A stretch of 62,991 nucleotides of DNA, counting the filler, from Collodictyon triciliatum (lineage: Eukaryota): assembly GCA_043381765.1 (NCBI GenBank). It is 17 parts of 17 records of this genome, joined end to end, with 100 filler letters (N's around TTAATTAATTAA, not from the genome) between each part and the next. Parts side by side here need not be neighbours in the genome. Positions count along the whole stretch, not along the records: positions 46,404 to 50,194 come from JBHJMP010006874.1; 16 more parts are not named here. One strand, given 5' to 3'. The notes under the pieces are model-generated. The model saw only the letters and a program-made list of their open reading frames with translations. It was not told where the DNA came from and did not search any database. The position numbers were made by a program, and so were the translations under genes. This document shows, in pieces, positions 46,304 to 57,223 of this stretch (the first letter of the stretch is position 1; the number at the start of each line of letters is the position of its first letter).

Positions 46304-46547
46304 NNNNNNNNNNNNNNNNNNNNNNNNNNNNNNNNNNNNNNNNNNNNTTAATTAATTAANNNNNNNNNNNNNNNNNNNNNNNNNNNNNNNNNNNNNNNNN
46401 NNNTTTTTGTTTTTTGTTTTTTGTTTTTTGTTTTTTGTTTTTTGTTTTTTGTTTTTTGTTTTTGTTTTTGTTTTTGTTTTTGTTTTTGTTTCTGATGAAA
46501 CCAGACGCAGTCTAATAAAGAACCCTATATGATTGCTTAAATGAAAC

Positions 46548-46742
46548 CTGATAAAAAGCATCTTCGAACAAGCTGGAGGAGCGCACAGCAATCGGTGTTT
46601 TCACGTAGTACAAGAAGTGACGAAGAGAAGTAACCACATCCTATTGAAAGAACCACGTAATCAATGACCTCTAAAATTTATTGATATAATCAGTTTGTTA
46701 AATTAACAGGGCTCTCAAAACGAACGTATACACATATTTTTT

Positions 46743-46775
<33 letters not shown>

Positions 46776-49700
46776 GTACGGCGTCAAAATTGTGCGATAC
46801 AAAGGCCTTAGCAATGGCTTCGTCGGTGGCATCAGAATTGGAAAGCTAAATTCAGGATAGAGTCAAGGTTATGTTTAATTCTCGCAAATGAACATCATCA
46901 ATATTCTTGTGAAACCGGCATCATTTCTATTCAGTAAATCGCATATAAACCTCAAATAAAGACTCGCTCAAAAAGCTGTCAAACACAGATGTAGTGATGA
47001 CTAATGTACGAGGGACGGACACACGGAAATGAGGAAAAGCTCTCTCCAAGTCGTAGGCCTATCAAAATGACATAATTAGACATATTTCTAATTTTGCTGT
47101 TGCCTTATATCCAATTCCTCGAATGATTTTTGAATGAGCTTTCATATTAGACGTACTCGGAATACCATCACAGTCGATAGTGAATAAGTAGTACTATCAT
47201 AAATAAAAATGCATATGGTTTGCGACGTATTCAGCGCTTTAGATATGTAAATTTCTCGACTAACCTTCAGCAGGGCATTAATGAAGCCAATACCACGACC
47301 TTTTCCGCCTAAGGAGCCTTTACCGAGTCTGGCAAAATGTGTGGCAAGGTCAAAGTTATCCACAGAAAAGTCAGATACCTATCGAATAAAGCGAAAAAAA
47401 AACGTGTTTCCTGTCAATATTTACTATATTAAATGAATAGGTGATTTAGTTTCTTTCATATTGAAAAAATAAATTAAGAATCATATTCGGAGCATACCAT
47501 TCCTTCTTGTTTTTCCTCTCTTAACTCCAAGATACTCCGAATAATAAATTCTCGAATGTCAGACACAGATGTAAATTCANNNNNNNNNNNNNNNNNNNNN
47601 NNNNNNNNNNNNNNNNNNNNNNNNNNNNNNNNNNNNNNNNNNNNNNNNNNNNNNNNNNNNNNNNNNNNNNNNNNNNNNNNNNNNNNNNNNNNNNNNNNNN
47701 NNNNNNNNNNNNNNNNNNNNNNNNNNNNNNNNNNNNNNNNNNNNNNNNNNNNNNNNNNNNNNNNNNNNNNNNNNNNNNNNNNNNNNNNNNNNNNNNNNNN
47801 NNNNNNNNNNNNNNNNNNNNNNNNNNNNNNNNNNNNNNNNNNNNNNNNNNNNNNNNNNNNNNNNNNNNNNNNNNNNNNNNNNNNNNNNNNNNNNNNNNNN
47901 NNNNNNNNNNNNNNNNNNNNNNNNNNNNNNNNNNNNNNNNNNNNNNNNNNNNNNNNNNNNNNNNNNNNNNNNNNNNNNNNNNNNNNNNNNNNNNNNNNNN
48001 NNNNNNNNNNNNNNNNNNNNNNNNNNNNNNNNNNNNNNNNNNNNNGGATGTAATTACCAGACTCTTAAAATCATTAGCTTGGGCCAATTTAGAGCCCTTT
48101 TCATCACGGAAAATGAATGGACCAAAACCCAAAGATTCTGACTGTTTGTTCAATATGTAAATAAAGCTGAAGAAATTGAAATTTTGGAGAGAAAAAGGCT
48201 GCTCATACAAACCATAAAATTTTTGAGGGCATGAAGGACATTGTGTGATGACTTATCAACAAATACAACACCAAGGGCTTTCGCTTCTTCTCTGTATCAC
48301 AAGATTATTATTTTAAAAAAATAATGCTTGACTGATGAAATCATGAATAATCTTGTCTTGTTGCCTTATATATAAAGACACAAATTAGACAAAAACATAG
48401 GAAGACAAACTTAATAGACACATCGCCAGTCTGAAACAAAATGGGAACAGTAGGAGTTAATTGTTTCACAAGTTTGGCCAATTCCAGACCAGCTCTGGTA
48501 TGGTGCTTGCCTACAAACGTAGAGGCCTTTTCAGTTTAAGGAAATGGTGTAATAGGCGAATCAAACAAGTAGAAGAAAAACAGCTACCATTCTTTGGAAA
48601 GGCGTTGTCAGTAATAACAGCCATAATGTTATTTCGGTATCGTTGATAGATATCCATGGCCTACAATTCATAATGATTTGAACCATGAATACAAATTTGA
48701 TCTTGATTGTTAACTTGGTTTTTCATTTATATTTATGGACATAAATTTTTCACTTGAGAATCTTCTGGATGAATTATTATATTTTGATAACACGAGCAAA
48801 AATAGTATTATCTAGAACTCAGCCGAGCTAATGGCAAATAAAACACTGTGTAATGGTACCTCTTCAAACGATGTTGTCAGCAAAATCTTTGGACGGGCGT
48901 TGATGCGAGCTTTACTCGCGTCTATGGAATAGTCATCTGCCATGCTCAACTGCATCAATAAGTATTTAATAAACTGGTTATGTTTGGGGTGCATTTGATG
49001 AATAATAGTTTTGAATAGATATATACCTGAGTTTGTTTGATTAACTCTTCGTAGAGAAGCGGGAGATAACTTCAAAAGAGGGAAAAAAAGTGGGGTAATT
49101 AAATTCTAACTCTGGCCACAGTTCTTTGTATTGCATAATGAAGGAAAAATCTGACATTAGCTGAAATATCGTTGATATTAAAAGACAAATAATATGTTTC
49201 TAGAGTGTAGAATGTCCGAAAGAAAACTATTAAAATCGCATACAAAGAGTAGAATTTAACTCCATCTTCGACGACGATTATGATTTGAAGGTCAGGGAAT
49301 ATTTGGATATCATGAAAGACATTCAAACGGTCTTCGACAGTCTGAGAGAAATTATAGATAGAATCACAAAATAGCTTTCTCTGGCGTCACATTATGCGAA
49401 TCCCATGAGTATCATAACTGAAATGGTGGATGTATCTACATTTTAAGAGTGGCAAATATTTCTGCTCCAATCGTTTCCTTCTTTGTCTTTTTTTTTTTTA
49501 GTGTTACTCACTTTCACCATTGCCAGTAGGAGACGAGCATCTCCGGTCCAGACGAAAGGCCAAGTCCAAATATGTTGCTCGTTAACTTCTTTGTGGTATT
49601 CCGCTGCCTCCCATAAAATTCTTTTGTGAACATTCAGACGAAAAGCCTGCCATTTGATTGTTATCAATAAATTGGGTGGCACACACCTCCGTTTTATATA

Positions 49701-49974
49701 TTTTTTTTGATATAAGTGCGAATAAAAATTTCTTCGGGCATATTGGGATATGAAAAGGGGACCAGTGAAACGAAGAGAAATAAAACTGTGATAGAATTCT
49801 CTGTCATTTTTCAAAATAAAAATATAAGATATTGGCGAAAAGAAATAAAAGTATGATGCGTTTTTCATGATATACCTGATCGACTCTGGGGTCAAGGAGC
49901 GTCAATTCACGTGTGTTTGATGCAAGAAGCAAGACGGGGACGTTTGATGCGACTCTCTTAACATCCAACAAAAA
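46548..49974 (-). CDS. Bacterial-type PEP/pyruvate-binding (PPDK_N / PEP-synthase-like) protein with N-terminal receiver-like domains; intron-rich, partial
   Basis: PFVWTGDARLLLAMVK|TVEDRLNVFHD, IIIVVEDGVKFYS, ARPKILLTTSFEE|AMDIYQRYRNNIMAVITD, LGFGPFIFRD, FARLGKGSLGGKGRGIGF, VPRTLVITTSVFDSFL and PIAVRSSSLFED. Confidence 0.85.
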
Positions 49975-50607
49975 CTATAGCACATTATGGTTAATGTTTA
50001 ATCAACATAGTGGTGAATAATCAGTGAGAGTGCCTATATATTATATTATATTATATTATATTATATTATATTATATTATATTATGTTTTTTGTTTTTGTT
50101 TTTGTTTTTGTTTTTGTTTTTGTTTTTGTTTTTGTTTTTGTTTTTGTTTTTGTTTTTTTGTTTTTTTGTTTTTTTTTGTTTTTTTGTTTTTTTGNNNNNN
50201 NNNNNNNNNNNNNNNNNNNNNNNNNNNNNNNNNNNNNNTTAATTAATTAANNNNNNNNNNNNNNNNNNNNNNNNNNNNNNNNNNNNNNNNNNNNTTTTTC
50301 TTTTTTTCTTTTTTTCTTTTTTTCTTTTTTTCTTTTTTTCTTTTTTTCTTTTTTTCTTTTTTTCTTTTTTTCTTTTTTTCTTTTTTTCTTTTTGAGCTCA
50401 TAGAACTCAGATTCACACATCATATCGTTTTCCTTTTCGATAAATATAACCACCTCATTTTATCTGTTGGACACACTTTGACGCAGCAACTTTCGAAGTT
50501 GTACTTTCTTAAAATATATTAGGCGTTTGAGCAAGTTTCATGCCTTTGCAAGTGCTTAAATAACATCTCTACAATTACGAATAGCTTTTCATGATAAACC
50601 CCGTGAC

Positions 50608-54851: not shown

Positions 54852-55453
54852 GCCCCTTCGCCTACCCTCAACAGCAGCCAATCCAAATGCAGCAGCAATC
54901 GATACCAACACAAAGCCCATAACTTTGACACTTACTCCCCACTCTCTCCCTCCCCGCTCTATGTTCCTATATGTACATGCGTGAATCTGTCACGTCACCA
55001 TCGCTTCGAGTTCACTCCGCTTTGCCTTGCCGCATTCCAACCAAATCCTGACCAAAACCACAAGTTTTGGAGCGAACGCCTCCGCACCACACTGCATCAA
55101 CGAAGCCATAATCTATTTCTTGCCTTTGCATCCTGCTCTCACCTCTCTATCATCGCATTTGTCGCTTCCGCCGCAATGGGCGCAGCATCAAACCACTGCC
55201 TTCTCACAGAGACCTCCTCTCTCTTCCCCTCTCCTCTACGCGCACACATCCACCACCCTGACCATAAAACCTGCCTTAGCCCTTTCCGTTAACCGCCGGT
55301 CTGCATGAACAAATCAGTCCAGCCATTTGCACATACACGGCGAATCCAATCACGCCTCCTTTTATTAAATCAAGCAGTCTAGAACACACCACCACCCGTC
55401 TGTCCTTCCTTCCTGCCCTTATTAATCAAAACACACAAACCAAACAACCAGAG

Positions 55454-57223
55454 ATGCAGACTCTGCCTCGATCAATTGCCGAAGCCCAGGGCCTTGTCTC
55501 CAGTCTGCTCCATCCTAATCGACGCGGGCAGCTTCTTGTGTCTTTGGGGCTTTTGTTTCTGCTGGCTACTTATATGAATCTCCAGTCGGGAGTTTCCAGC
55601 GGGTCCCAAAGTGGCGCAGGCGACTCATTCGATCAGAGTCTAGGCAAAGCGCCGCGTGCAGAGGATGATCCCAACTACCGCCGGGTGCAATTCTTTGAGC
55701 TGCTCAAGGCTGCCGAGAAGGAAGCGATTCAGCAGCATTTTAGGGAGCGTGTGCAGAGTCTCTATGAGCCACCGGTCTCGTGCGTGTTCAACTGCTCGAC
55801 CATCCCAAAGTTTTCCTTCCGCCTAAGCAAAGGCATCCAATGCCAGCCAAGGACCCTGTGCACTTTCACGGCTTTGCGCTCGTTCCACTATAATCCAGAC
55901 GAGTATATTCGCTTCCACAAGCGCTCCAAAGTGGCCTGCCGAGAAGGTGGGACGCTCGCAATATGCAACTTCCCCCGCAAGAACGACTGTGATGAGCATG
56001 GCTGGCGCGAGTGGATTCTGCGCTACCGTCAGAACGACCAAGCAAACTATACCACGCGCTTCTTTACTGCCCAGTATCTCCCTGGGCGTCCCTTCATGAT
56101 CAATAACATCTTTGAGACCAACGAGTATCCATCCCATTGGAAGGTGGTTTCGTTCTTTCAGCCCGCGGGGCTCAGTCCGAACCGCTGCAATCAGATGTAC
56201 TGCTTCTATGAATATGCAGACGGCCTGATCGAAAGACACGAAGCCAAGCCTGGGGACATGTCCTTTGTTTACTGTCCAAAGCCTCGAAGGACTCTCGAGG
56301 ACATATCACACAGTATTCAGTCCAACCGCTCCCGTGCCCTAATGAGGCTCTCGTACGACCATAAGGTATTCAGTCATCCTTTTGGAGTCACAGTCGACCG
56401 TACGATGGAAAAGCACCTACCCAAAGTGTTTTTGAGTCTCTGTACGATTGTAAAGAGAGAGGGAAAGAACCTCAAGGAGTGGATTGCGTTCCACTTTATG
56501 ATGGGATATGACAGAATCATTCTGTATGATAACAACGAGCCTGGTGATGTTGACCAAGAGATGGAAAAATACATTCGTGCACATCCCAATCGAATCATTC
56601 GTTATCGCTGGCCATTTCTCCATGCTCAGACTGAGCAAAGCACTGACTGTGTTCTTCGATTTGGCTCCACAACCACATGGATGACCTTTATCGACGTAGA
56701 CGAATTTCTTGTCCCGAGCCCGCCTCATGAAAATATCCGCTCCCTCCTCACAACAAAGTACAAAAACGACATCATTCTACAGGCGACTTGGATAGTCTTT
56801 GGGCCGTGTGGGACAGAAAAGAGAGGGGAAGGGACACTGACCATGGAGCGGTGTAAAAATGTTTATCCTTATCCGTTTCCCCTTCACAAAACTACGTTTC
56901 AGCCGGCCTATATTGCTGGAATGCAGGCTATTGGACCTCATTTCCCGAGACTAAAGACCGATATCGGTACGCGCCTGAGAAGTTTGTATCGACTTGTGAA
57001 TGAAGACATGCGAACATATCATTACAGATTCCGCACGCTGCCAGAGTTTATCGAACGTCGAATGGGCTCCGCAGCTGACCGAATAATAGTCCAGGATTTG
57101 GATTCTCTGATGAAAGATTGGAAAAATGGGGTGCGGTTGAGCCACAACTTCTCAGATTCTGAAAATCACATGCTTCGTTTCATTCCAAAACTCAAGCGCG
57201 AAATGGACAAATACCATGTTTGA
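55454..57223 (+). CDS. Type II membrane glycosyltransferase, GT92/GT-A fold, intronless
   Basis: N-terminal TM anchor; LSLCTIVKREGKNLKEWIAFHFMMGYDRIILYDNN, DCVLRF, WMTFIDVDEFL (DxD) and YHYR. Confidence 0.88.
   Translation: MQTLPRSIAEAQGLVSSLLHPNRRGQLLVSLGLLFLLATYMNLQSGVSSGSQSGAGDSFDQSLGKAPRAEDDPNYRRVQFFELLKAAEKEAIQQHFRERVQSLYEPPVSCVFNCSTIPKFSFRLSKGIQCQPRTLCTFTALRSFHYNPDEYIRFHKRSKVACREGGTLAICNFPRKNDCDEHGWREWILRYRQNDQANYTTRFFTAQYLPGRPFMINNIFETNEYPSHWKVVSFFQPAGLSPNRCNQMYCFYEYADGLIERHEAKPGDMSFVYCPKPRRTLEDISHSIQSNRSRALMRLSYDHKVFSHPFGVTVDRTMEKHLPKVFLSLCTIVKREGKNLKEWIAFHFMMGYDRIILYDNNEPGDVDQEMEKYIRAHPNRIIRYRWPFLHAQTEQSTDCVLRFGSTTTWMTFIDVDEFLVPSPPHENIRSLLTTKYKNDIILQATWIVFGPCGTEKRGEGTLTMERCKNVYPYPFPLHKTTFQPAYIAGMQAIGPHFPRLKTDIGTRLRSLYRLVNEDMRTYHYRFRTLPEFIERRMGSAADRIIVQDLDSLMKDWKNGVRLSHNFSDSENHMLRFIPKLKREMDKYHV

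Follow-up and report, generated by a model that had tools for sequence, protein, structure and literature searches.

Does a contig from a protist assembly carry a true nuclear gene of bacterial ancestry, and if so, what might its product do? The contig in question lies in a window of 62,991 nucleotides (the whole stretch of DNA analyzed here, from the Collodictyon triciliatum assembly GCA_043381765.1) that consists of 17 short contigs with spacers N44-TTAATTAATTAA-N44 between them. An initial annotation had read it as a bacterial-type receiver joined to a PEP-synthase-like gene, split by many introns and acquired by an old lateral transfer. Based on our results, we consider it likely that the contig holds the central portion of a nuclear gene that is spliced and functional, and whose receiver-dikinase-like family came from bacteria and entered eukaryotes once; its product may be an ATP/His regulator.

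Exon-intron structure and transcript support

The gene lies on the minus strand of its contig, which is broken at both ends, has an internal gap and carries no second gene (Table 1). Fourteen exons of 43-135 nt join in frame and are translated without a stop. The outermost exon ends match the limits given in the initial annotation, which was right about the short GT-AG exons and their in-frame joins and had put their number at about ten; all motifs quoted there were found, in exons 2/3, 3, 5, 6, 9, 11 and 14. Each of the 12 fully read introns (71-229 nt) starts with GT and ends with AG, and the 13th, intron 9, starts with GTAATT and enters the assembly gap. Intron phases are mixed (ten of phase 0, one of phase 1 and two of phase 2) and the density is about one intron per 100 coding bases, or some ten per kb of coding sequence. 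GC content is 43% in exons versus 24-38% in introns, and GC3 is 0.43 versus 0.40 for a ROCO-kinase contig in the same window; GC among the window contigs ranges from 30 to 58%. An Rfam scan of the whole window gave no matches. Residues are numbered along P0123, a transcript protein of 1110 aa; 689 of its roughly 1110 codons fall outside the contig exons, and the last 517 residues lie beyond the contig, past exon 14.

Table 1. Features of the contig bearing the receiver-dikinase gene (positions along the window, residues along P0123)
Feature	Position	Strand	Description
Gene-bearing contig	46404..50194	.	3.8 kb; artificial spacers at both edges
Microsatellite (T5-6G)n	46404-46490		contig end
Exon 14	46548..46640	-	residues 563-593, PIAVRSSSLFEDAFYQ including AVRSSSLFED; donor GTTTCA
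Exon 13	46780..46845	-	residues 541-562, PPDK_N
Exon 12	46951..47058	-	residues 505-540, PPDK_N
Exon 11	47265..47378	-	residues 467-504, PPDK_N ATP-grasp start, GSLGGKGRG
Exon 10	47498..47578	-	residues 440-466, 5' end in gap; linker domain end
Assembly gap, 466 N	47580..48045	.	covers rest of intron 9, exon(s) for residues 397-439, exon 10 start
Exon 9	48058..48141	-	residues 369-396, GFGPFIFR, start of OrfY/DUF5752-like linker; donor GTAATT, then gap
Exon 8	48213..48291	-	residues 342-368, FVDK with receiver Lys K355; both neighboring introns absent from RNA contig X7
Exon 7	48411..48510	-	residues 309-342, receiver strand 4 ILFQTG; RNA contig X7
Exon 6	48588..48660	-	residues 285-309, MAVITD with phospho-acceptor Asp D302; upstream border crossed unspliced by DNA contig X1
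Exon 5	48860..48949	-	residues 255-284, RPKILLTTSFEE; holds RPKILL
Exon 4	49027..49069	-	43 nt, residues 240-254, YLPLLYEELIKQTQ; both neighboring introns absent from RNA contig X15
Exon 3	49244..49341	-	residues 208-240, TVEDRLN and receiver strand 1 IIIVVED (E232 D233); carries IIVVEDGVKFYS; phase 2 end, donor GTATGC; RNA joint 49069->49244 at border with exon 4
Exon 2	49512..49646	-	residues 163-207, clade-specific insertion and FVWTGDARLLLAMVK; 100% identical to P0001
Exon 1 of part seen	49876..49974	-	residues 130-162, pseudo-receiver end VPVLLLAS and insertion start PRVDQ; acceptor AG at 49975-49976; upstream exons beyond contig
Microsatellites (ATTAT)n and (T5G)n	50026-50194		opposite contig end

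The joined exons align without gaps to the Diphylleia rotans transcript protein (P0001/P0123), with 379 of 421 window residues identical (90%). Chance cannot be the source of this match. Part A (residues 130-396) is identical at 253 of 267 positions and part B (residues 440-593) at 126 of 154 (82%), the latter value being compatible with an orthologue, a paralogue or a copy from another species. The host is a collodictyonid-like protist, a near relative or a divergent strain of D. rotans.

Splicing was seen directly in environmental data. Introns 3, 4, 7 and 8 are removed to the base in two RNA contigs from separate studies, one of them a polyA library, and a 15-letter loose end in RNA agrees with intron 6, while three DNA contigs cross exon/intron borders unspliced. 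This RNA support covers 4 of the 13 introns (5 with the loose end) and comes from runs containing only 5-7% of sampled words; the other 8-9 introns are placed by the protein alignment alone. The best run reached at most 0.16 of the sampled words, and in the four runs mapped cover was lacking over most of the stretch and throughout 46500-48033, so these runs are uninformative on expression there. A scan of metagenome_contigs with P0123 as protein gave 58 pattern matches, none confirmed, and a scan of the same collection with a 41-base exon-2 pattern found none. Pfam searches of 15 single-exon frames gave nothing above cut-off and PPDK_N at E 0.04-0.12 in two of them, single exons being too short for detection. 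Together, the GT-AG ends, the in-frame joins and the loss of introns from RNA yet not from DNA identify these introns as spliceosomal (U2-type). Because in-frame GT-AG exons and exact RNA joints occur together, we conclude that this is a spliced, expressed eukaryotic gene.

Domain order and conserved residues

The protein is ordered as pseudo-receiver, receiver, OrfY/DUF5752-like linker, PPDK_N ATP-grasp domain and a C-terminal domain whose His (H1022) is invariant. PF01326 is the sole Pfam domain above cut-off in P0123 (E 1.2e-33, residues 488-902) and was also above cut-off in all nine clade relatives. The family motifs FxWxGD..K..EDR.N, GFG.F.F, GGKGRG and RSSS..ED are present in window exons 2, 3, 9, 11 and 14 and invariant in 104 sequences. 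The C-terminal motifs GPGRWG (G981-G986) and PS.G.HFF.N (H1022) were read from P0123, as the window contig stops at residue 593. Residues D302, K355 and E232/D233, together with GGKGRG, RSSS..ED, GPGRWG and H1022, are invariant in the 104 sequences and in all seven clade members.

Both receivers of P0123 fall under the Pfam cut-off (15 bits versus 30.2 for receiver 2). In the second, E232 D233, D302, T336 and K355 lie where model strands 227-231, 296-301, 332-336 and 351-354 end, and its matches to solved receivers reach Z 13-15.6; the receiver Asp sought in the initial annotation is thus D302, in the AVITD motif of exon 6. The first receiver lacks the acceptor Asp (consensus FDLVISM.RVG; Diphylleia QLVISLLRVG), and because Met or Leu replaces this residue we designate the domain a pseudo-receiver.

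The full-length structure model has a pLDDT of 85.4, and its ATP-grasp domain aligns with rifampin phosphotransferase 5hv1 over 282 residues (Z 26.2, rmsd 2.6). The PEP/pyruvate TIM barrel, PF02896, gave no match in P0123 (E<=0.1) or the nine relatives (E<=0.01), and the approximately 200 residues after the ATP-grasp domain are wholly taken up by the His domain. Since the PEP/pyruvate-binding barrel is missing, the protein is not a PEP synthase or PPDK. A model of the C-terminal fragment (pLDDT 78.2) has phospho-His carrier domains as seven of its nine best chains (RPH, PPDK, enzyme I and a pyruvate kinase end domain; Z 5.4-7.5), with all matches below Z 8. Sequence searches did not recover this likeness: PF00391 was found by Pfam in none of 34 C-terminal segments and in neither P0123 nor any of the nine clade relatives, hhalign of the C-terminal domain against PEP-utilizers gave a probability of 0.4%, and a PDB profile search returned chance-level matches alone (E>=0.25). 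Similarly, none of nine PF00391 matches in five host genomes lies at a locus of this family, and Foldseek with the fragment model gave nothing at E<=0.001. An ESM Atlas search with the C-terminal domain returned solely fragments of the same family, with scores <=0.89. One wide PDB search with the whole 1110-residue model was filled by receivers and is uninformative for the C-terminal domain.

Bacterial relatives and the origin of the eukaryote clade

The bacterial relatives of P0001 are proteins of about 1000 aa with PF01326 and PF00072 (E ~1e-200, 42-46% identity), labeled in databases as 'PEP/pyruvate-binding domain-containing protein', 'histidine kinase' or 'CheY-like'. Against them, P0001 and P0123 are covered over 88-94% of their length, and parts A and B of the window protein share 38-46% of their residues with P0011, P0019, P0129 and P0132. 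The family spans at least 808 genome species and 3942 cluster representatives at E<=1e-3. The bacterial loci fetched are each a single uninterrupted frame. An ELFV dehydrogenase (glutamate dehydrogenase) gene lies within 4 kb in 36 of 80 bacterial loci, with 37 of 37 flagged ORFs confirmed by Pfam. Literature searches found no published function for the bacterial REC-REC-PPDK_N family, nothing on a receiver-dikinase gene in work on collodictyonid HGT, nothing relevant on DUF5752/PF19027 and OrfY of Thermoproteus tenax, and nothing that connects GDH with response regulators, ATP-grasp domains and phosphohistidine. On transfer of receiver-dikinases to eukaryotes, only Galperin et al. (2018) was relevant; it reports that three Heimdallarchaeota have REC in fusion with pyruvate phosphate dikinase.

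Eleven eukaryote-type rows form one clade with SH-aLRT 100 (LG+G4, 68 rows), as do ten of them with SH-aLRT 99 under LG+C20+F+G4 (40 rows), in trees that are unrooted, come from quick searches and hold no Asgard sequences. Its sister is P0011, from a Bradymonadales MAG (support 96 and 95), within an enclosing bacterial clade supported at 99-100. The next nearest bacteria are Myxococcota, Aegiribacteria, Acidobacteriota and Eisenbacteria, whereas the branches of Bacteroidota are distant. Three protein searches recovered about ten 90%-identity clusters of the eukaryote clade, and because these stand against at least 808 bacterial species, we take the direction of transfer to be from bacteria to eukaryotes. 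Named sources are EP00002_Diphylleia_rotans, EP00320_Phaeocystis_rex and MMETSP transcripts; the further sequences are mRNA-sized or intron-split, and we infer a eukaryotic origin for 6 of the 10 clusters. Between pseudo-receiver and FxWxGD, all seven clade members have 32-50 residues versus 14-20 in 103 of 103 bacteria, all of which lack the motif RVD..R.N..KR.GWE of the insertion. Additionally, one clade member lies in at least three pieces on a 376-kb contig, with an exon break at the position of window intron 3, within 1 nt. Branches inside the clade measure 0.4-1.3 changes per site. When at least 808 genome loci were ranked against P0123, the best 80 included no Asgard record, and the single archaeal locus (L064) falls far from the eukaryote clade.

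These observations have to be weighed against other accounts of the gene's history. In keeping with the initial annotation, we give practically no weight to bacterial contamination or to an assembly artefact, with a broken bacterial gene passing for exons: the GC spread of the window contigs means that the assembly may contain foreign DNA, and the family is overwhelmingly bacterial, but the 13 interruptions lie in an AT-rich setting, are of mixed phase and have GT-AG ends, four are dropped exactly from RNA contigs while DNA contigs retain them, the product is 90% identical to a protist transcript versus 38-46% for the bacterial proteins compared, and the bacterial genes are uninterrupted. Vertical descent from an Asgard-type ancestor or LECA, with loss from most lineages and no bacterial transfer, would suit a clade that reaches two distant supergroups, CRuMs and Haptista, and would draw on the Heimdallarchaeota fusions. 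The nesting of the clade in one bacterial subclade under two models, the lack of Asgard among those best 80 loci, the distance of L064 and the mere ten or so eukaryotic clusters make this very unlikely. It is likewise hard to credit that each eukaryote lineage acquired its copy separately, the collodictyonid one being a private transfer; the patchy distribution and the long branches within the clade would allow it, whereas the single clade (99-100), its common insertion motif and the exon break near intron 3 argue against it.

Transfer from bacteria to eukaryotes is therefore supported by the nested clade, as far as trees can indicate, with a patchy distribution. The gene most likely has bacterial ancestry and is an old acquisition, with related copies in several other protists that are not akin to one another. 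The donor probably stood near Bradymonadales/Myxococcota, with one entry into eukaryotes and a subsequent gain of the insertion; the present patchy spread includes at least CRuMs and haptophytes. In the collodictyonid lineage, the gene has taken up introns to their present density and a host-like base composition. The lateral transfer of the initial annotation is thus upheld as an entry into eukaryotes, not as one directly into this protist. A broad, vertically inherited set of eukaryote orthologues had been named there as counter-evidence; a clade with Phaeocystis rex and MMETSP transcripts does exist, but it is patchy. The family was correctly described as about 1000 aa and mainly bacterial; Bacteroidota, given there as an example of its holders, are not the nearest bacteria. 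The hint of a low-oxygen lifestyle found no support: the named holders are Diphylleia and Phaeocystis, both aerobic, and the bacterial family is not limited to anaerobes.

Proposed function and comparison with known systems

We infer that the protein functions as a receiver-gated ATP/His phosphotransfer regulator. The predicted ATP-grasp domain very likely binds ATP, and the odds slightly favor its phosphorylating the C-terminal His, from which the phosphoryl group would move on to a partner. The receiver Asp, once phosphorylated, probably gates this activity. Glutamate dehydrogenase or nitrogen metabolism may be the target, a tentative and rather doubtful proposal for a eukaryote that is drawn from the bacterial gene neighborhood, where the adjacency holds for 36 of 80 loci, not all, and has no direct bearing on a eukaryote.

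Two other readings of the activity were considered. A metabolic dikinase of a canonical kind, be it PEP synthase, PPDK or glucan-water dikinase, that makes PEP or phosphorylates starch might be suspected from PPDK_N as the one domain above the Pfam cut-off and from the PEP synthase models of NCBIfam, which match at E 1e-10 to 1e-14. The latter score 12-55 bits, however, far under their cut-offs of 456-1350, PF02896 and PF00391 are absent from P0123 and all nine relatives, and the chain has two receivers before the ATP-grasp domain and stops after the His domain, making this reading highly implausible. The initial annotation was accordingly correct to separate the protein from eukaryotic PPDK and glucan-water dikinase, and too strong in calling it PEP-synthase-like, as the likeness goes no further than the ATP-grasp domain and a swivel-like His domain. 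Alternatively, the chain could be a self-contained phosphorelay, in which the ATP-grasp domain loads the C-terminal His and this in turn phosphorylates the receiver Asp of the same chain without a separate histidine kinase, an arrangement well suited to a eukaryote host. The His and the acceptor Asp, both invariant, do occur in one chain in all 104 + 7 sequences, the protist has no known cognate kinase, and VadK, a PPDK derivative, is reported to act as a histidine kinase. We nevertheless consider this relay improbable: the conserved GDH neighbor suggests an external target, and bacterial receivers fused to enzymes are usually inputs. A bolder composite is less probable again, namely that a single gene from a Bradymonadales/Myxococcota-like bacterium entered eukaryotes once, gained introns, and then either crossed between distant protist supergroups or was retained since a very early ancestor, keeping one or more intron sites intact, its product being a self-sufficient ATP->His->Asp relay that controls GDH, possibly in an organelle.

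The locus offers a clean, checkable case of a bacterial signaling enzyme fully naturalized in a deep-branching protist, and its intron load bears on the rate at which transferred genes gain introns. One clade of CRuMs, haptophyte and plankton sequences, with a common insertion and a hint of a common intron site, makes eukaryote-to-eukaryote spread or a very old acquisition testable. That the key residues are all kept in eukaryotes argues for an activity that transfers well and is of use without an operon, and the eukaryotic members provide a second system for the suspected glutamate dehydrogenase link. If the bolder composite were true, eukaryotes would possess a bacterial-style metabolic switch without a classical histidine kinase.

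Among known proteins, glucan-water dikinase is eukaryotic and has a nucleotide domain of the PPDK_N type. It is marked by starch-binding modules and by a His domain that precedes the nucleotide domain, a domain order unlike that of the receiver-dikinase. Pfam scans of P0123 and nine relatives found no starch-binding or carbohydrate-binding families, and the region upstream of the ATP-grasp domain consists of receivers, unlike glucan-water dikinase. PEP synthase and PPDK are similar in the ATP-grasp domain and in the domain directly after it, which in the receiver-dikinase is a putative swivelling-type domain (2ols, Z 25.9, model 479-1094; 1dik, Z 18.6, model 469-1110), and differ in having the PF02896 barrel and PF00391 signature and no receivers.

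The closest ATP-grasp structures are rifampin phosphotransferase (5hv1, 5fbs) and HpeI (9goj), at up to Z 26.2, which also give the closest PDB sequence match (E 1.4e-7); the C-terminal part of RPH is the top match of the C-terminal fragment model (Z 7.5). Compared with rifampin phosphotransferase, the protein lacks the rifampin-binding domain, has two additional receivers and carries a His domain that cannot be recognized from sequence. VadK (Rv1127c) of Mycobacterium tuberculosis is reported to be a PPDK derivative outside central metabolism that autophosphorylates and regulates metabolic enzymes by interaction. It thus offers a functional analogy for a dikinase turned regulator, itself without receiver domains. 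Tandem true and degenerate receivers before an enzyme domain recall PleD (Foldseek E 8e-6; 3luf, Z 12.3, model 53-374), with the differences that here the first receiver is degenerate, not the second, and the output is ATP-grasp/His, not GGDEF.

The bacterial REC-REC-PPDK_N proteins share the full-length domain order and invariant residues of the eukaryote copies. The latter differ in an extra ~17-35 aa between pseudo-receiver and FxWxGD, in N-terminal extensions in several members and in their spliceosomal introns, and the ATP-grasp loop of P0123 is 45 aa longer than in the bacterial family.

Gene structure, splicing and expression

The window, 62,991 bases, comprises 17 short contigs, each about 3.8 kb long, separated by N44-TTAATTAATTAA-N44 spacers. 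The contigs are nearly equal in size, from 3798 down to 3789 nt, except for one of 3459 nt and the cut last one. Since the spacers are artificial and GC varies from 0.30 to 0.58 between contigs, adjoining genes are not genomic neighbours. The receiver and PPDK_N gene lies on the contig at 46404-50194, which carries microsatellites at both ends and a 466-N gap at 47580-48045.

All peptides quoted in the initial annotation were found on the minus strand of the window. The exon at 49512-49646, queried alone against longer proteins, had a sole match, P0001, an 843-aa transcript-derived protein labelled EP00002_Diphylleia_rotans that is 100% identical across the exon. A tblastn search with P0001 returned 14 collinear minus-strand pieces, all on this contig, and no significant match elsewhere in the window. 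Exon borders were set manually and then checked by script. The gene is indeed built of GT-AG exons that splice in frame, and its outermost exon ends are exactly those first proposed (46548 and 49974), while the exon count rises from about ten to 14 (43-135 nt). All 12 fully read introns (71-229 nt, of mixed phase) have GT..AG borders, and the 13th begins GTAATT and runs into the N gap. Exons have 43% GC and introns 24-38%. The joined exon frames contain no stops and align without gaps to P0001 residues 130-396 (253/267 identical) and 440-593 (126/154 identical).

RNA and DNA support was drawn from two metatranscriptomes and two metagenomes, the best public run containing 0.16 of the sampled words. 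RNA contig X7 is joined at 48141->48213 (intron 8) and 48291->48411 (intron 7), and its loose end of 15 letters agrees with how exon 6 begins. The polyA-library contig X15 is joined at 48949->49027 (intron 4) and 49069->49244 (intron 3), the latter with its GTATGC donor in phase 2. DNA contigs of X1 and X2 cross exon/intron borders unspliced. Because RNA contigs are joined at introns that DNA retains, the introns claimed from the genomic sequence are genuine, and natural populations express the gene, as demonstrated for 4 of 13 introns, or 5 with the loose end.

The Diphylleia transcript assembly holds three isoforms, P0001 (843 aa), P0122 (695 aa) and P0123 (1110 aa), which share the same sequence up to each one's stop, as would fit intron retention in a gene so dense in introns. 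Judging by 90% protein identity, the window organism may be a close Diphylleia relative or a divergent strain, or the gene may be a paralogue.

Other contigs differ in character. One (3900-7694, plus strand) consists of one open frame, 1265 codons long, without stop or intron, in sharp contrast to the intron-dense gene; its product is a long coiled-coil protein, rich in Ser and Pro at both ends, and the frame has a GC3 of just 0.20 and gave no match in a Pfam scan. On the GC-rich contig at 7796-11593 (0.58 overall, rising to 0.67 at 8-10 kb), long open frames overlap on the two strands and a stretch of (GT)n lies close to 10,500; this contig likewise gave no Pfam match, and may be repetitive or of foreign origin. 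On the minus strand at 35063-38480, a Roc-COR frame (36765-38480) and a protein kinase frame (35063-36700) together form a ROCO/LRRK-like gene, typical of eukaryotes, whose GC3 (0.40) is similar to that of the receiver and PPDK_N gene. A plus-strand frame of 647 codons at 55280-57220 encodes a family 92 glycosyltransferase domain and has a higher GC3 of 0.55.

Domain architecture

Residues are numbered on P0123, the longest Diphylleia isoform. Pfam assigned PPDK_N to residues 488-902 (E 1.2e-33), with DUF5752 and Response_reg under their cut-offs; the NCBIfam models for PEP synthase, PigC and rifampin phosphotransferase all fell far under theirs. The domain map was taken from an alignment with 103 bacterial relatives and a structure model (pLDDT 85.4).

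Domains outside the ATP-grasp region, in P0123 numbering
Domain	P0123 residues	Window exons	Features
Receiver-like domain	~52-160		Acceptor Asp replaced by Met or Leu
True receiver	224-377		E232 D233, D302, T336 and K355 at expected strand ends
Small linker domain	375-461	9-10 (48058-48141, 47498-47578)	Weak DUF5752
End domain	200 residues, C-terminal		Invariant GPGRWG and H1022

The modelled true receiver matches solved receivers at Z 13-15.6, and the receiver Asp is present in it. The modelled linker resembles OrfY of Thermoproteus tenax (PDB 4cso; Z 11.9, rmsd 1.9 over 87 residues), which the family profile also matched by sequence (E 0.007); a literature search found no paper on OrfY. The ATP-grasp domain is closest to rifampin phosphotransferase, both in the model (Z 26.2) and in a PDB sequence search (E 1.4e-7). 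The PEP/pyruvate barrel is absent, and 'PEP-synthase-like', as first described, overstates the resemblance. The window exons cover the tail of the pseudo-receiver, the true receiver in full, the greater part of the linker and 100 residues from the beginning of the ATP-grasp domain.

By sequence, the end domain is not a PEP-utilizers domain: PF00391 was found in 0 of 34 bacterial end-domain segments, hhalign against eight true swivel domains from five family-holding genomes gave a probability of 0.4%, and a profile search of PDB returned chance-level rows alone. A fold model of a natural 383-aa fragment of a clade member (pLDDT 78.2) was compared with 48,161 chains, and seven of the nine best matches were phospho-His carrier domains, from rifampin phosphotransferase, PPDK, enzyme I and the Bacillus pyruvate kinase end domain. 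Lower-ranked matches were other domains of the swivelling beta/beta/alpha fold. The carrier scores (Z 5.4-7.5) lie under the stand-alone level; they are suggestive, and we regard a phospho-His-carrier-type fold as likely.

Relatives and origin

The search with P0001 retrieved bacterial proteins of about 1000 aa at 42-46% identity, and an exhaustive search gave 3942 family representatives; the gene occurs in the genomes of at least 808 species of bacteria and archaea. The best non-self matches were longer proteins from mRNA-sized contigs, some linked with MMETSP transcripts and one with EP00320_Phaeocystis_rex. At least three pieces of one clade member (P0282-P0284) lie on a single 376,560-base ENA contig; they correspond to residues 1-159, 179-375 and 622-765 of a clade member, with diverging ends of the sort expected from a gene caller that ignores introns. 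The break after ...VKFYSS, the first of them, falls at the site of window intron 3 within one base, which hints at an intron position common to distant eukaryotes.

Trees were built with FastTree (128 rows) and with IQ-TREE in quick LG+G4 (68 rows) and quick LG+C20+F+G4 PMSF (40 rows) runs. Eukaryote-type rows formed a single clade in all three, with support of 100, 100 and 99, respectively. Both IQ-TREE trees pair it with a Bradymonadales MAG protein as sister (96 and 95), and the two are nested in a Myxococcota/Aegiribacteria/Acidobacteriota/Eisenbacteria clade (100 and 99). Bacteroidota, initially named as an example of the bacteria in which the family is mainly found, are distant. Furthermore, an insertion encoded by window exons 1-2 measures 32-50 residues in all seven clade members examined, versus 14-20 in 103/103 bacteria. 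From the one clade, its bacterial sister and the common insertion, we read that the gene probably entered eukaryotes once and then either descended patchily or spread from one eukaryote to another. An ancestral origin of Asgard type, for which Galperin et al. 2018 provide the basis, would dispense with bacterial transfer; we consider it improbable. No Asgard record occurs among the best 80 genome loci of the family. On this reading of a single entry, the lateral transfer proposed in the initial annotation keeps its bacterial origin, recast as one entry into a clade that includes other protists.

That a protist should carry a naturalised bacterial gene is a familiar kind of finding; the particulars here are new and modestly interesting. 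Literature searches found no paper on the function of the family or on its eukaryotic members. A 2026 preprint presents collodictyonid draft genomes, and the words 'intron' and 'horizontal' are absent from its main text.

Possible function

Glutamate dehydrogenase was examined as a possible conserved neighbour of the bacterial genes. A gene for an ELFV dehydrogenase lies within a flank of 4 kb or less at 36 of 80 family loci tested. Five of the eight loci closest to the eukaryote clade have one, and Pfam confirmed all 37 of the frames flagged. From gene counts, the chance rate of such a neighbour is under 1%. At six Bacteroidales loci (L022, L032, L046, L051, L053 and L065), a second full-length family member directly adjoins the first; tandem copies are common in that order.

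Three eukaryote-type proteins (P0141, P0276 and P0154) have N-terminal extensions of 71-114 residues upstream of the conserved start. The first 40 residues of P0141 include 5 basic and no acidic ones, and resemble an organelle presequence.

Based on anatomy, conserved residues and bacterial synteny, we propose that the receiver would gate phosphoryl transfer from ATP to His and on to a partner. A precedent is VadK, reported to be an autophosphorylating regulator of metabolic enzymes, which indicates that a PPDK derivative can take on such a role.
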